Positions 15,001 to 27,000 of a DNA stretch of 64,000 nt are shown here, in pieces. The stretch lies in NCBI GenBank assembly GCA_963730935.1, contig CAVSTP010000002.1, positions 128,001-192,000 of the forward strand, read 5' to 3'. Each line of letters opens with the position of its first letter. Position 1 is the first letter of the stretch. This stretch comes from an uncultured Nitrospiraceae bacterium (GTDB lineage: Bacteria > Nitrospirota > Nitrospiria > Nitrospirales > Nitrospiraceae). Position numbers: made by a program.

Positions 15001-18000
15001 ACGGTTTGGCGTTCTGGGCCTCCTCGGCGTCGGATCCTACATCGTCGCCGCGTACGGACTGTTGTACACCGACGTCACGCACTACGCGTTGATCTATAGT
15101 CTCCTCCCCACATTTACCGCATTTTTCAGCTGGTGCCTCTCGAAGGACAGCCTGAACTGCGCCAGCCTGTTCGGCATCGTGCTCTCCTGGACCGGCTGTC
15201 TGGTGGCGTTGGTCCCCAACCTACAAACGGGATCCATTGAATTCGGATCAGGAGACCCCCTCGTCCTACTGTTCACGTTCATGATGGCGGCTCACCTTGT
15301 TCTCAGCATGCACATCGTGAGACGACATGGCGTCCTCACCGCCAATACTGCGATGTTCGGAATCACAGCGGTCTTCATATCGGGGGGCACGGTCGCATGG
15401 GACGAGCCGACGTCACCAGGGGATCTTTCCTGGACTGTCTGGGGCTCCGTGCTCTTCATCGGGCTAGGGACCGCCAGCGTGTTCCTACTGCGTTGTTGGT
15501 CCTTACAGTCCCTGACGCCTGCGACCGTAGGTGCCTATCACAATCTTATTCCGATCTGCACCATCGCGATTGCCCATTTGTCGTTGGGTGAACCTGTGAC
15601 CACCCAGACGATGACGGGGGCGCTGGCCGTCCTGCTGGGGACCGAACTCGTGCGGCGCAAACCGGCGTGGTCTGCTTTGTCTGCTCACAAGAGATTCTTG
15701 GGCCTAGCGTTCGCAGCCGGAAGGTCTTCAATCGCTTGGGGCGCATTGAGGAAGGCGGAGGCGGAGACTCATCGATTTCGCCCCTCGAAGGGGGGATACA
15801 TTTGATCGGCTGCAGCACAGTACACTGGCCACATGGATGACATCAGGGCATACCATCGAGGTCTCTACCGCCTGTCGTTAACGTATCCCGCCATGTACTG
15901 CATCACGTCGACCGTCGGAGAAGGAACGATCACCAACCTGTCGGCCATGGGATGCTCGATCGAAACGGACGAGCCGCTCCCCACACAGCAGCACGTGGCG
16001 CTTCGCCTGCTCCTTCCCGACAAAACAGAATCCTTGGCAATCGACGAAGCCGAAGTCAAATGGGTCAAGGGCACGCGCGCCGGCGTCGAATTCATTCAAG
16101 TGGAGCGGAAAGCCAACTTACGCTTGCATTCCTTCGTTTGGGACAAGATGATCGAGCGGATTCAGCAGCTTCAACAACAGCGCGCCGCCTTATCCTAGTT
16201 TTGGAGCGTCTCGCTTTTGTCCTCTTCCCATCGCCGCCAAGCAAAGCAGTCCGATTCCGATCCAGACTAGTTCTCGGAAACGCCGCAAGAGCGCGAAGGT
16301 AATCCCCGTGACGTCCGAATACCCGAAGGCCTTCAGCAACAATAAATTGCCTCCGTCCTGCGTGCCCAGACTCCCCGGGATAAAAAAAGTTCCGCCTTTG
16401 ATGAACACCGACAGCGCGCCGATGGAAATCGCGGACAATAGCGAGGCTGGACCTCCCAAATACAAAATGATCACATACACTTCCACGGCTTCCGCCAGCC
16501 ATCCCAGAAGGTAGAGCGCCGTGGCCGCGTAGAAGGCCGACCGATGGTGCATGTAGAAATTGAGGATGATCCCGTCCAGCGACCGCAATTTCTCCTCGCG
16601 GCTCTCGAGAAAGGCCACATGCAGACCGAGCCCGCGCAGCGTCCGGAGGATCCACATGAACAGCCCACGCTTCTGCACGAAAATGAAGGCTGCAACTCCG
16701 AATAACAGCAAGGCGACAGAAAGGAGGCTGGCTGCCGCAACTTGGCCGGATGATCCTTCCGCGCCCAGCATCCAGAACGCCAGCGCAATCCCCACCAGGA
16801 TGAATAGCACCTGGGCAAGCGTCATGATGGTCTTGGCGATCACGACTGATGCGAGTCCTTCGACCATCGGGATCTGGTGTCGCTGGAGAAAATAGGCCTT
16901 GAGCGGCTCACCGCCGACATACGCGGTGGGGGTCGTCATATTGACCACTTCGCCGGCCGTCCTGATTGCAAGAATCTTCCAGAAGGCAATGCCGTGTGCC
17001 GCTGAGCCTAGCGTGAGCTTCCACCCATAGGCTTCGAACACATACATCAGCAGCGAAGGGATCAATATGACGAGGAGCGCACCGGAACCGACTTGGGTGG
17101 CCGCTTCATAAATTTTACCTGGACCGATGTGCCAAACGAGGAGAGTGAGGGTGAGGAAACCGAGAGCCAATAGAAGATAACGCCACACGCTATGAGGCAA
17201 GACGAAGTGGGACGAGCAAGGTTTGTGGCGACCAGACGGGAACGCTATGGCGGCGCATGACTTTCACTCCCAACCGATCACGCAGACGGTCTGGTTGCAA
17301 TCGCGGCCGGCCGGATGATCCAAATCATGACTCCGGCGAATGCGAGCGACCCGATTGCGGCCAGCCACAGAAATGCTTCGAGCTTCCCGAGGAGGGCAAA
17401 CAGGAACACGACGACGGAAAAATCCCTGGTGGCGACGTTCTTCAACATGAAATCCGACCAAGCCGCATGCAACGGTGTTTTCCATTCACTGGCCGTCTTG
17501 ATTTTTTGAGCCCTGTTGATCAACAAAAACGACAGAGCGTTACCGCAAATGGCAGCAGCTCCGAGAGCAAGTGGGATCCAGGCGTGATCACCGCCGGCCG
17601 CCTCCCGATAGGCCCCGATGGAGATTCCACCGAAGATGGCCATGTGCACGACATTATCAAGTGCGAGATCCAACCATGCACCAAATGCAGACTCGGTGAA
17701 CGTCAAACGGGCGACTTCCCCGTCGCTACAGTCAATGATCGCCGCCAGTTGGAACAGCAGTGCCGCACCAAGACCAGCGGCATATGTCCCGAAGGCAAAC
17801 CCTGCCGCGGCGACAAGACCGATCACGGTGGCCAGGATCGTAATGGCGTTCGGCGACCAGCCGAGCGCAAGAAACGCTCGCGTACACCACCGCGATAATT
17901 TCCGATTGAAGTAACGATCGACGACGCCTTCGAACTCCCCTTTCAGCGACGAATATAAGCGACGCTCGGCCTGGCGTAAATCGGCGTTGGTGAGGACCGG

Positions 18001-24000: not shown

Positions 24001-27000
24001 GGCGGACCATCGTGCTCTACGGGGACATCATGTTTGACAGTCCCATATTGGAAAAGCTATTGAAGAGTCCGGCCGATATCGCCCTCGTCGCGGATTTGGC
24101 CTGGAGAGACCAACACCAACGTGGCGGACCTTCCTCTCATCTCAATCCGGATCTCGTGACCTTCGCGGAACCGCCCGGAAACAGTTCCCACTCACGATTC
24201 GTCATGGGAGACGAGGAACACCGGGTTGTGAAAATCGGCCAGCACCTGCCGTTCGACCATGTGCACGGCGAATTTATCGGCATGGCGATGTTTTCCGAGA
24301 AAGGCACACAAGCGCTGAAGGACTGCTACCGTAGCTCGCAAGAGCGGTATAAGTCTTCGGGGTTTCACGAAGCCAGCAGCGTCAGCAAGGCATCCTTTAC
24401 CGACCTGATACAGGAATTGATCGATCAGGGACACCGCGTCGACGCCGTGCCTATTTTCAAAGGTTGGATGGAAGTCGATTCTTTCGAGGAATACCAGAAG
24501 GCGTGGGCCAAAATCCGCCACTAATCGCCACGCAAAAGCACGTAGTCCTTTCTTCCTTCTCGCAGACCCCTGTCCTTTCCCCCTCCTTTGTGGGACCCTG
24601 ATCCCCCTCTCCCTGGGAATGGTCGAATTTATCATCCGAGGTACCCTCTAGGTGTCGCAATTGGGAGGTACCGATGAAAGGCAATTTACTTAAACAGAAT
24701 CTGGTAGCGCCCCGCACGCATACTCCTCTTGACCGCCGCTACGCCGAACGGGCACTCATCCAGCATGACGTCACCTACACTAGCACTGAAGGTGCCAGGT
24801 TCACGACCTCCACTGGCTCGCTGAAAGATCTCTCAAAGACCGGCTGCAAAATCGTTGGAACAACGCTTCCGGTCGTTGGGGTCCGTGTCACGATCACCTT
24901 GTATTTGAACGACGGACAGGCGCCCTTGTGTCTAACGGATGCTTCTGTCTCGTGGATCAAAGGCAATGTCTTCGCCGTACGATTTCCTAAGTTGACCGAC
25001 GACGAGCGGAAACGGATTCAAGGGGTCGTCTGGAAACATGTCAGCTTGTCCGACGCTAAAAATCACCGTACGGCCTTCCGCATCGTCATCTAACCGTTAT
25101 GCGGTCGCATTGGGTAGGAGCTGAGTAAGGGAGGAATGGGCATGAGACAAGCGAGCATCGACAGGTCCCGCCGGACTGACAAGCCATCTGACGACAACCG
25201 CCGGGGAACCGAGCGAGTCCCCGCTCAGTTCAGCTTGATGTACTCGGGCATGAGTGACGGCCGCATGCTGATCGGTAACGGCGTCGTGAGCAACGTCTCA
25301 AAATCCGGCATTGGAATTCTGGGCAACCATCCGGTCAAACACGGAATGGATCTGTCCCTTTTTATCGACCTCCCGGGCATCGAGGAGCCGATTTGCATCG
25401 CCGAAACCCGAGTCTCGTGGGTGTCGGGACGGCGTTTCGGAGTCGAAATGATTGCGCCAAAATTGGACGTGCAGAATGAGCTGCGGTTTTACGTCTGGAA
25501 TCATCTGTATCGGCAAGATGCCAAAAAACCATAACAGGGTGATGCAATGAAACAGGCAAGACTTCGAGCCCTCCGATCCCAACACCGCACTCATCCGGCC
25601 TGCGATCGTCGGACGGACCACCGAGTCCACATCGATTTCCGGCTCATGTATTCGGCACAGGACGACCGAGAAGAAATGATCATGGGCGACGGCAGTGTGG
25701 TCGATCTTTCCAACAAGGGACTACGCATCCGTGGCAACATGGCCGTAAAGTCCGGCCTCGAAATGACGTTGTTTCTCTATCTTCCCGACGGGCGTGATCC
25801 CCTCTTTGTCCTTAGTGCAAAGGTGGCATGGTCGAAGGGTCACGAGTTCGGCGTGGAGATTCTGAAGATGAATGTGCGCGAGCGCAATCGCTTACGTTAC
25901 TTCCTCTCCTCGAATCTGCAGCACTAGGCGGGTTCCCCGCTTCGCGTGAAATCCCCATCTCGGTTGTCAGGCGTGAGACGTTCATGCTACGCTCAGCGGT
26001 GAGTAATTACTCACTTACTGAACGAATGTCATGGCCAGACAACCGCGGTCGACAAGTCAGCAACGCCAGGCCGGCCTCATTGCCGCAGCCGCCTCTCTCT
26101 TCGCAGCCAAAGGCTTCAACGGGACAACGACCAAGGAGATCGCGAGAGCCGCCGGCGTGAGCGAAGCGCTGGTCTTCAAGCATTTCCCGACCAAGCGTGC
26201 GCTCTACGGCGCCATTCTGGCCGAAAAGGTCACCGTCGACGAATTGCTGGTGGCGGTCGAAGAATCCGCCAAAAAACGCGATGACCGCCGGGTGTTTACG
26301 CTGATCGCCCGATTTCGCATCAGACCCGGGGTGGATTCCACCTTCCTTCGACTGCTTTTGTTCAGTGCGCTCGAAGGTCATGAATTGTCGGACATGTTCT
26401 TCGGGAAACACCACCGGGTCTTTTACGATCACCTCGCCACATATATCGAGACCAGAATCGGCGAAGGCGCTTTTCGCGAGGTGGATCCGCTGCTGGCCGC
26501 CCGAGCATTCATTGGAATGGTCGTCCATCACCGGCTCCTTCACGAGATCTTTGGTGTCCCCATGCATCGGTCCCATGACGAAACGGTCGCCACCTATGTC
26601 GATTTGTTCTTGGCCGGCCTCATGAACAGTCCTGTACGGAGACGGGCCTCATGAATCCGGTAAGACAGCATCCCATCGTCACGCTCGGCGTCATCATCTT
26701 TTTTGCCGTCACCGCGCTGGTGGTCTTTCGGCTCAGCAGCGGAGCAAAGGTCGATCAGAAAAAATCACGAGTCATCACCGTGGGCACCGTTATGCCGTTC
26801 AAGCGGGACCTGGACATCCGGCTGGCCTATACGGCGGATATCACGCCCAATCAGGTGGTCAACATCTTCTCCCGAGTAGATGGCTACATTGCCAAACTGT
26901 ACGTCGATAAGGGCGATCTCGTGAAGGCCAACCAATTGCTCCTCGAAATCGACCATCAGGACTATCTCCATGCACTGAATCAGGCAAAAGCCAACGTCGC

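Follow-up and report, generated by a model that had tools for sequence, protein, structure and literature searches.

A putative cysteine-loop PEP mutase at a predicted aminoethylphosphonate-lipid locus in Nitrospirales

The window analyzed here is a stretch of 64,000 nucleotides from the genome of an uncultured Nitrospiraceae bacterium. All seven genes that the first-pass annotation had assigned to a 2-aminoethylphosphonate (AEP) lipid pathway were found between positions 16190 and 24524. The features of the locus are as follows.

16190..17200, minus strand: LPG_synthase_TM/HpnL-like membrane protein, flippase-like (PF03706; TIGR03476 score 157.1, below cut-off; TIGR00374 above cut-off)
17278..18672, minus strand: CDP-alcohol phosphotransferase with a soluble N-terminal part, AF2299/DIPPS-like architecture (PF01066; closest solved proteins 4O6M and 4MND)
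18697..19416, minus strand: stand-alone PntC-type cytidylyltransferase (closest solved protein 6PD1, Tde-PntC; next LicC)
19413..20495, minus strand: 2-aminoethylphosphonate transaminase, AepZ/PhnW-like (TIGR03301 score 340.7, cut-off 360.8)
20526..21104, minus strand: ppdB, putative beta subunit of a split phosphonopyruvate decarboxylase, RhiF/ComE-like (PF02775; TIGR03846 score 186, TIGR03297 score 174.7)
21101..21598, minus strand: ppdA, putative alpha subunit of the same enzyme, RhiE/ComD-like (PF02776; TIGR03297 score 128.8, TIGR03845 score 108.7)
21637..21666, minus strand: sigma-70-like site 5′ of ppdA (11 of 12 positions, a consensus match alone)
21715..22221, plus strand: u1, a Nitrospirota protein encoded in the gap between operon and pepM, without Pfam or NCBIfam match
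22226..22771, plus strand: u2, a paralogue of u1 (41% identity), without Pfam or NCBIfam match
22804..22833, plus strand: sigma-70-like site immediately 5′ of pepM (10 of 12 positions match the consensus)
22845..24524, plus strand: cysteine-loop pepM fused to a PF12804 domain (559 aa; ATG at 22845)

The term operon, applied earlier to the whole locus, fits six of the genes, which form one minus-strand unit from 21598 with the ppdA stop overlapped by the ppdB start; it does not extend to pepM, which is divergent, on the plus strand, and separated from the operon by u1 and u2. The promoter scan was based on consensus matching and is weak, as 2 sites were found against 1.1 ± 1.1 in shuffled sequence; the promoter-like site of its own suggests that pepM may be a separate transcription unit. 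Contigs from RNA libraries, four sets of which cover parts of the region, were set aside as expression evidence because assembled contigs are no proof of transcription and may stem from carried-over DNA. No family was found for u1 and u2 in Pfam, NCBIfam or the Atlas clusters (the last all hypothetical), and u1 is retained in genomes that lack PepM. Translation of the CDP-alcohol phosphotransferase gene displayed the signature motif of that family.

The 559-aa product of pepM has an exact match in the protein collection and is already annotated as PEP mutase in IMG/UniProt. In its PepM part (residues 1 to about 295), the gating loop reads EDNVYPKRCSFY (EDNVYPKRCS) and departs from EDKX5NS, the motif used as the family filter; the loop first noticed in the window was confirmed. 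By alignment to the Mytilus enzyme, with residue roles from the available text of PMC7916636, the variant loop EDNxxPKRCS differs from the canonical EDKxxPKxNS by K116N and N122C. Cys replaced Asn122 in all 36 order loci selected by identity and in 79 of 80 loci outside the order (the best 80 of 578), with one unread. The equivalents of W44, D58, D85, D87, E114, K120, S123, R159, and H190 were retained in 116–117 of 117 variants, so that the Mg ligands (D58, D85, D87, E114), the phosphoryl anchors (R159, H190), and K120 and S123 are present.

Scoring against TIGR02320 (PEP_mutase) gave 273.8 for the window PepM, under the cut-off of 319.55, and 257–296 for ten further variants, all 11 falling short; a canonical Nitrospirales PepM passed at 393.2. 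As annotated previously, the best NCBIfam models PEP_mutase, PhnW-AepZ, and Ppyr-DeCO2ase were each matched under their cut-offs. The solved proteins nearest the window PepM in sequence and fold are PepMs. Its predicted structure superimposed on them with an rmsd of 1.0–1.2 Å at 50% identity, which is minor support, as the underlying alignment held many canonical PepMs and this closeness is partly built in.

Fusion of PepM to a cytidylyltransferase had been reported; the fusion is present, but the fused PF12804 nucleotidyltransferase-like domain has a degenerate pyrophosphate motif. The arginine of GXG(T/S)R is missing in both forms, the variants reading AAGFEKQL and the canonical fusions AASRGxEL, and cytidylyltransferase activity of this domain is therefore only putative. 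The stand-alone PntC (AAGVGKRL...RPK) has Arg15 and Lys25 of the motif GXG(T/S)RX4-8PK given in the accessible part of PMC6697681; both align with Tde-PntC, and a Lys occupies the T/S place.

Near-universality in Nitrospirales was borne out: ppdB was detected in 148, the operon PntC in 144, and some PepM type in 145 of the 151 order genomes, compared with a PepM-type match in 1 of 139 phylum genomes outside the order. Members of the 90% clusters of the window proteins were named Nitrospira, Nitrospiraceae or Nitrospirota. Among the 144 PntC-bearing genomes, which include relatives and are not independent, 108 had canonical PepM only, 34 the variant only, 2 both, and none neither, canonical status being read from the loop in 23 loci and taken from an E-value band for the remainder. 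The two forms together, given before as 4 of 17 genomes, were found here in 2 of 37. In 33 of 43 genomes, a loose EDKX5NS DNA pattern picked up genes of other kinds, and only two matches with the PK pair were counted. Six of the seven order genomes without the operon PntC lack every PepM type, and the presence of PntC agrees with that of PepM in 150 of the 151. Judged from these sequences, the pathway appears to begin with the variant form in about a quarter of Nitrospirales, as it does in many soil bacteria.

On a tree of 58 genomes built from ppdA, ppdB, and aepT, PepM state switched at least 13 times. The variant adjoins the operon in 16 of 16 genomes of the same family, and all 17 canonical genomes fetched from that family retain this locus but lack the variant gene there. 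A deletion scar, consisting of a frameshifted 3′ remnant of the variant pepM, was found at the locus of genome G098. None of the 8 variant loci in a second family is linked to the operon; two of the eight are on short contigs. In 19 of the 23 canonical pepM loci read, no ppd lies within 9.5 kb of the gene; canonical pepM therefore depends on this operon, and the operon is thereby marked as one that handles phosphonates. Three genomes of one clade (G025, G108, and G124) have lost every PepM and the lipid genes; as they keep ppdAB and the transaminase, these genes may have a second use. In genome G017, the operon is present and the two lipid genes were not found nearby.

Outside the order, the best 80 of 578 variant loci were analyzed. 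Among the 71 loci of this set that could be assessed, from 7 named phyla, 52 have ppd immediately downstream in the same orientation; 58 of the 80 loci contain ppd at some position, against 13 of 54 in the first-pass annotation, and 19 of the remaining 22 genomes carry it elsewhere. The transaminase was present in just 26 of the 80 loci. No canonical EDKxxPKxNS gene was detected in these 80 genomes; the lone match to the loose pattern was a 71-aa frame reading EDKHSPKLNW. Clustering of ORFs was swamped by shadow ORFs in the high-GC DNA, and 45 recurring clusters were annotated. The variant takes the first position in pepM-ppd(-aepT)-pntC clusters of several phyla, and in one protein (P0004) it is naturally fused to a Ppd-alpha domain. 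Genes for a squalene-hopene-cyclase-like protein, a polyprenyl synthase, and an epimerase flank it in some lineages. The downstream ppd, the P0004 fusion, and the order-wide complementarity couple the variant genomically to phosphonopyruvate-consuming enzymes.

A tree was built from 63 rows hand-picked from about 190, the search having been seeded with the variant. The clade proposed earlier was recovered for the Nitrospirales variant (97/90); the Cys-loop forms across phyla were not recovered as one, such a clade occurring in 0 of 200 bootstrap trees (AU p 0.14). Nodes nesting canonical PepM within a Cys-loop grade had supports of 89/91 and 90/94, with a distant outgroup, and hydrolase-like sequences formed a separate branch (100/98) apart from the variant. 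A far-reaching scenario, which we consider rather doubtful, is that Cys-loop mutases represent the family's old grade, a living intermediate that retained the lyase-type Cys yet already formed C-P bonds, and that both the hydrolase and the EDKX5NS mutases arose within it; between a fifth and a quarter of environmental pepM would then be invisible to the filter, and all Nitrospira-type nitrifiers, comammox included, would have an undescribed AEP membrane lipid, which would make them a constitutive phosphonate source and provide a biomarker.

EDKX5NS is the pepM filter in the available text of PMC8942020, PMC8931226, PMC12723261, and PMC6697681; a fifth paper filters on conserved residues instead. 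Two Sorangium genomes scored pepM-negative in PMC9381506 both carry the variant cluster, and the variant loop is presumably the reason for these calls; CAN97474 of S. cellulosum So ce56 is a protein of the variant type. The same survey scores N. japonica NJ11, N. moscoviensis, and N. inopinata as pepM-negative beside pepM-positive Nitrospira strains, and these three would be predicted to carry the variant and to form the same compound as the positive strains. In a crude metagenome sample, 21 of 78 PepM-like loops failed EDKX5NS. Neither an N122C mutase nor a paper linking Nitrospira with phosphonopyruvate was found in the literature searched, which was mostly without subscription papers, including the primary mechanism work on PepM and the hydrolase; the supplements of PMC8942020 and PMC6697681 contained no text on Nitrospira or Sorangium, and the literature checked gave no Nitrospira head-group data.

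Several other explanations of the locus were weighed. The best model of ppdB is sulfopyruvate decarboxylase beta (186 versus 174.7 for the phosphonopyruvate model), databases name ppdA as sulfopyruvate decarboxylase, and the three genomes of one clade keep ppdAB and the transaminase without PepM; the operon could thus be a sulfonate pathway leading from sulfopyruvate through sulfoacetaldehyde to taurine, with the pepM-like gene as an unrelated neighbour or a sulfur-analogue enzyme. We regard this as highly improbable, because the best solved relative of ppdB is 9IZ3, a split true Ppd (RhiEF, homologous to ComDE in the available text of PMC12141560), because the same operon serves genomes whose sole PepM is canonical and passes TIGR02320, and because PntC follows PepM across the order. 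A phosphonopyruvate hydrolase-like or other catabolic role, in which the loop Cys would admit water as the hydrolase Thr does and the clusters would salvage phosphonates, has equally slight credibility. The TIGR02321 score of the window protein (264.1) is close to that for TIGR02320, P0005 scores higher on TIGR02321, and the variant differs at position 122, to which most authors attribute the separation of mutase from hydrolase (PMC7916636 and PMC3266647, available text); the two Sorangium genomes also carry phnA, phnW, and phnY in the accessible part of a published table. However, the TIGR02321 cut-off is 374.4, and the variant has Cys in place of Thr118 (DTSL). A hydrolase would also destroy the substrate of the ppd that is so often directly downstream, and would leave unexplained both the mutual exclusion with canonical pepM and the absence of genomes with neither form. 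The hydrolase is described from a catabolic operon with a transporter and a LysR regulator (PMC3266647, in the part available), whereas the recurring neighbours annotated for the variant are ppd, aepT, the cytidylyltransferase gene pntC, and lipid genes, and the hydrolase-like branch is distinct from it.

The variant could also be a mutase whose AEP is attached to a hopanoid, to a glycan or to a soluble polyol (giving a DIPPS-like diester), or the phosphonates made in other phyla could be different ones. The closest solved relatives of the CDP-alcohol phosphotransferase are AF2299 and IPCT/DIPPS, which leaves room for an acceptor other than diacylglycerol; the best NCBIfam model of the membrane gene is HpnL, the cyclase-like, polyprenyl synthase, and epimerase genes adjoin the variant in some lineages, and the transaminase is infrequent in the best 80 outside loci. 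We consider this unlikely, as the Nitrospirales set matches the predicted phosphonolipid core "Burkholderiales_CDP-OH" minus the oxygenase (PMC8942020, available text), although the product of that cluster is itself uncharacterized.

The best explanation overall, which we hold to be likely, is a Cys-loop PEP mutase starting an AEP-lipid pathway, the variant being an older resident that was repeatedly deleted. The complementarity with its deletion scar, the joint loss of PepM, PntC, and the lipid genes, the cluster position, the Ppd-alpha fusion, and the Sorangium scoring support the proposal that motif filters discard a true PepM, and on such genomic grounds the window variant very probably has PEP mutase activity. 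An AEP lipid as the end product is fairly probable, a reasonable conclusion yet weaker than the mutase identity. In the predicted chemistry, the variant, with Cys for Asn122 and Asn for Lys116 in its gating loop, would convert PEP to phosphonopyruvate, and the split Ppd would pull this unfavourable equilibrium on to phosphonoacetaldehyde. The transaminase would then form AEP, the stand-alone PntC would activate it to CMP-AEP, and the CDP-alcohol phosphotransferase would transfer AEP to an alcohol in the membrane, for which diacylglycerol is the simplest candidate; placement of the product may be aided by the LPG_synthase_TM protein. In Nitrospirales, the variant would be the longer-established gene next to the ppd operon, lost repeatedly in lineages in which an unlinked canonical pepM does the same job.

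EDKX5NS acts as gatekeeper in estimating phosphonate makers and in mining phosphonate natural products. Should the Cys-loop enzyme be active, such counts would miss whole lineages: Planctomycetota, Acidobacteriota, Rokubacteria, Myxococcota (Sorangium, for example), and roughly a quarter of Nitrospirales. The view of Asn122 as the mutase-defining residue would then need revision, too. A phosphonate lipid throughout an order of widespread nitrite oxidizers would, if true, bear on the source of environmental phosphonates.

Among known systems, canonical PEP mutase (TIGR02320; Mytilus 1M1B/1PYM and Streptomyces platensis 5UNC) is the best match (5UNC, E 2e-78). The variant shares Mg and phosphoryl ligands, fusion partner, and gene neighbours with canonical PepMs, including the Ppm-PF12804 fusions, and differs by the K116N, N122C loop and the sub-cut-off TIGR02320 score. 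Phosphonopyruvate hydrolase (2DUA) is the second-best match (E 3e-70) and is also without Asn122; it has Thr where the variant has Cys, and the variant lies among biosynthetic genes. The methylisocitrate lyase/isocitrate lyase family shares the fold and likewise has a Cys at this place in the loop (EDQxxPKRCG/PKKCG in the MICL-like paralogues read). This loop Cys is catalytic in the lyases, in agreement with the C123S titles of PDB entries. In contrast to methylisocitrate lyase, the variant scores 198 on prpB (cut-off 354) and has the PepM-type Ser123 and His190; the window genome also encodes a separate MICL-like gene. With Burkholderiales_CDP-OH/Group 1, as described in the accessible part of PMC8942020, the locus shares the Ppm-PntC fusion, Ppd, AEPT, a second PntC, and two phospholipid genes. 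Six functions of the seven-gene core are present; no alpha-ketoglutarate oxygenase was found in the window operon, to which this comparison was confined. The locus is different from that patchy cluster in that Ppd is split, pepM is divergent or unlinked, and the set is core to an order.

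The window annotation showed two divergent units, each with a promoter-like site (a weak match): a tightly packed minus-strand unit opening with ppdA (the operon), and a plus-strand unit in which u1 and u2 precede a pepM-like gene, here called the variant (Cys loop, EDNxxPKRCS). The features, in window positions, were as follows.

21598-21101, minus strand: ppdA
21104-20526, minus strand: ppdB
20495-19413, minus strand: 2-aminoethylphosphonate (AEP) transaminase
19416-18697, minus strand: PntC
18672-17278, minus strand: CDP-alcohol phosphotransferase
17200-16190, minus strand: LPG_synthase_TM membrane gene
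21715-22221 and 22226-22771, plus strand: u1 and u2, paralogues without known family
22845-24524, plus strand: PEP-mutase-family protein (559 aa), fused to a PF12804 domain

The first-pass annotation had described an operon containing pepM; the genes were present as described, with pepM on the opposite, divergent strand behind u1-u2. Members of the 90% clusters of the window proteins were named Nitrospira, Nitrospiraceae or Nitrospirota. The tandem u1 and u2 products (window 21715-22771) are 41% identical with hydrophobic N-termini, and their Atlas clusters are hypothetical and mostly from Nitrospirota; the pair is kept at the locus across the family with pepM present or absent, and u1 precedes the variant in six loci of a second family. 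Four stand-alone PilZ-domain genes, varying in copy number among relatives, flank the locus (window 15833-16198 and 24674-25927).

The loop of the window protein is EDNVYPKRCSFY, and that of Mytilus PepM, the alignment reference, is EDKLFPKTNSLH; compared with the latter, Lys116 is replaced by Asn and Asn122 by Cys. No second PepM-like gene was found in the genome, the sole other relative being a distant paralogue (37% identity). A review (PMC7916636) assigns D58, D85, D87, E114, R159 and H190 to binding of Mg and of the migrating phosphoryl group. In a set of 117 variant sequences chosen by loop motif, these residues, as well as K120 and S123, were each conserved in 116-117. In the same review, contact of Asn122 with the phosphonyl group is hypothetical; it states that most authors credit Asn122Thr with a switch from mutase to hydrolase, a view that the review itself doubts. 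Caution about the variant is warranted because the altered residue is the most debated one. In the proposed mechanism, the Cys and the adjoining Arg would close the loop enough for intramolecular transfer, and later steps would follow established AEP and CMP-AEP chemistry. Among solved proteins, the best relative of ppdB was RhiF, that of the stand-alone cytidylyltransferase Tde-PntC and that of the phosphotransferase AF2299/DIPPS. Whichever PepM type it is fused to, the PF12804 domain has no catalytic Arg, and it may be non-catalytic.

Among 151 genomes of the order Nitrospirales, each at least 90% complete, matches to the variant domain were bimodal, with 37 genomes at 58-100% identity and the remainder near 40%. 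All 36 fetched high-identity loci carried the loop ED[N/S]xxPKRCS and all 23 fetched low-identity PepM loci the canonical EDKxxPKTNS; unfetched low-identity genomes were classed by E-value band and ORF length. When all 37 variant genomes were searched for the canonical motif, two (G011 and G145) proved to have that gene as well. Neither type was present in six genomes, and the family members read in three were methylisocitrate lyase (MICL)-like. As the first-pass annotation had held, the pathway was near-universal in the order, with ppdB in 148/151 genomes and operon PntC in 144/151. The 144 genomes with operon PntC had canonical PepM only (108), the variant only (34) or both (2), and none had neither; the other seven were the six without any PepM and G021 (92% complete), which has the variant and also lacks ppdB. 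On a tree of ppdA, ppdB and the transaminase from 58 of the 151 genomes, which are related and not independent, the presence of each type changed at least 13 times; therefore, the pattern is not a single event. A PepM-type match was found in 1 of 139 genomes of the phylum outside the order.

Within Nitrospiraceae, the variant adjoined the operon divergently in 16/16 genomes. It lay at most 9.5 kb from the operon in two genomes of a third family, 12 and 16 kb off with unchanged orientation in two further genomes, and unlinked in 8/8 second-family loci, two of them short contigs. All 17 fetched canonical Nitrospiraceae genomes had the operon and u1-u2 with the pepM slot empty, 15 of them with the same tetR/mfp/rnd flank, and canonical-type G098 retained a frameshifted remnant, the last 31 codons of variant pepM, at the syntenic site (L079:11881-11974). 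Neighbourhoods of the canonical gene differed lineage by lineage; 4 of 23 canonical loci had their own one-chain ppd and 19 had none. At L047, L048, L050 and L061, canonical pepM has its own one-chain ppd in a genome that has retained the split ppd operon as well. In a loop-masked tree, the Nitrospirales variant (97/90) and the main canonical Nitrospirales group (100/99) each formed a clade, so reciprocal loss and repeated displacement both fit. G025, G108 and G124 form one clade in which every PepM has been lost. PntC and the phosphotransferase are likewise gone from the whole of these genomes, and the membrane gene from the locus; this co-loss links PepM of either type with the head-group module. 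Retention of ppdAB and the transaminase in these genomes (loci L082-L084) suggests a second use or recent decay.

Beyond Nitrospirales, GTDB species genomes were scanned with seed patterns that included EDNx[FY]PK and not the Cys; this gave 578 confirmed loci, of which the best 80 were analysed. The Cys loop was present in 79, the remaining one being unread; ppd occurred in 58 of these best 80 loci, PntC in 53, a CDP-alcohol phosphotransferase motif in 32 and the transaminase in 26. Among the 71 with enough flank, ppd directly followed the variant on the same strand in 52.

Loci with ppd directly downstream of the variant
Myxococcota: 18/28
Planctomycetota: 14/16
Acidobacteriota: 11/12
Rokubacteria: 2/2
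Chlamydiota: 1/1
Vulcanimicrobiota: 1/1
Pseudomonadota: 1/4
Binatota: 0/3
Unranked: 4/4

For 19 of the 22 loci without local ppd, the gene was elsewhere in the genome, and the three misses were MAGs of 1.7-2.9 Mb. A motif search found EDKxxPKxNS in none of the 80 genomes, many of them incomplete. In P0004, a six-member cluster, the variant is fused to a Ppd-alpha domain. In several lineages, genes of hopanoid or isoprenoid type (polyprenyl synthase, NAD epimerase, squalene-hopene-cyclase-like and carotenoid biosynthesis genes) lie near the variant, at third-family loci L023-L025 and L030 and at L187 and L192. An aldehyde dehydrogenase (e.g., L156:8753-10198) and a class I/II aminotransferase (e.g., L201:5793-7100) each recur close to the variant in six loci, mostly of Acidobacteriota, possibly marking phosphonoacetate or phosphonoalanine branches.

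At the base of the loop-masked tree, Cys-loop forms of other phyla were intermixed with canonical forms; the Cys-loop forms grouped together in 0/200 bootstrap trees, and their monophyly was not rejected (p-AU 0.14). Lyase-like loops (EDQxxPKRCG) branched below them. Three proteins (P0062, P0077 and P0086) have EDQxxPKRC[G/A]L loops, and the two tested fall between MICL-like enzymes and the PepM group. The Cys-loop forms may be an ancestral grade.

EDKX5NS serves as a hard filter in PMC8942020, PMC8931226, PMC12723261 and PMC6697681, the last giving 905 fused family members, with 22 lacking the motif removed as presumed non-Ppm. The TIGR02320 (PEP mutase) cut-off was missed by 11/11 variant proteins scored. 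PMC9381506 filtered on conserved residues, and its genome table scores Sorangium cellulosum So ce56 and So0157-2 as pepM-negative and aepY-positive; both contain variant-ppdA-ppdB-pntC (L163 and L172), which supports the earlier claim that motif-based surveys drop the variant. The same table includes 12 Nitrospirales genomes (9 pepM-positive, 3 negative, all with phnW), so the order's phosphonate capacity is partly recorded there already, and passages of a lake study (PMC10734540) mention Nitrospirota pepM. On the basis of homology, IMG and UniProt already list the variant as a PEP mutase; its RefSeq name is a generic family name. Metagenomes were scanned with a pattern of restricted codons that did not discriminate between loop types and favoured GC-rich codons (a non-random sample); it matched at least 120 stretches. 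The 80 among the matches listed held 78 PepM homologues (57 canonical, 15 Cys-loop, 6 EDNxxPKxNS), 21 of which fail the filter, which would thus miss a sizeable minority of metagenome PepM-like genes. In a query-biased set, the top 150 representatives at 50% identity, 94 had the motif, 22 the Cys loop and 21 Asn122 without Lys116. The EDNxxPKxNS group, which keeps Asn122 without Lys116 and also fails the filter, includes P0016, P0020, P0024, P0035 and P0047 and occurs at loci L206, L207, L231, L238, L259 and L260.

By two membership tests of PepM as now defined, the variant falls outside; in every test run it acted genomically like PepM. We consider it very probable that the Cys-loop variant works like PepM, and it probably feeds an AEP lipid. 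The literature searched, with partial coverage, gave no description of a Cys-loop form as a working PepM and no head-group data for Nitrospira. The pathway type itself is already known and is likened to the Group 1 phosphonolipid cluster.
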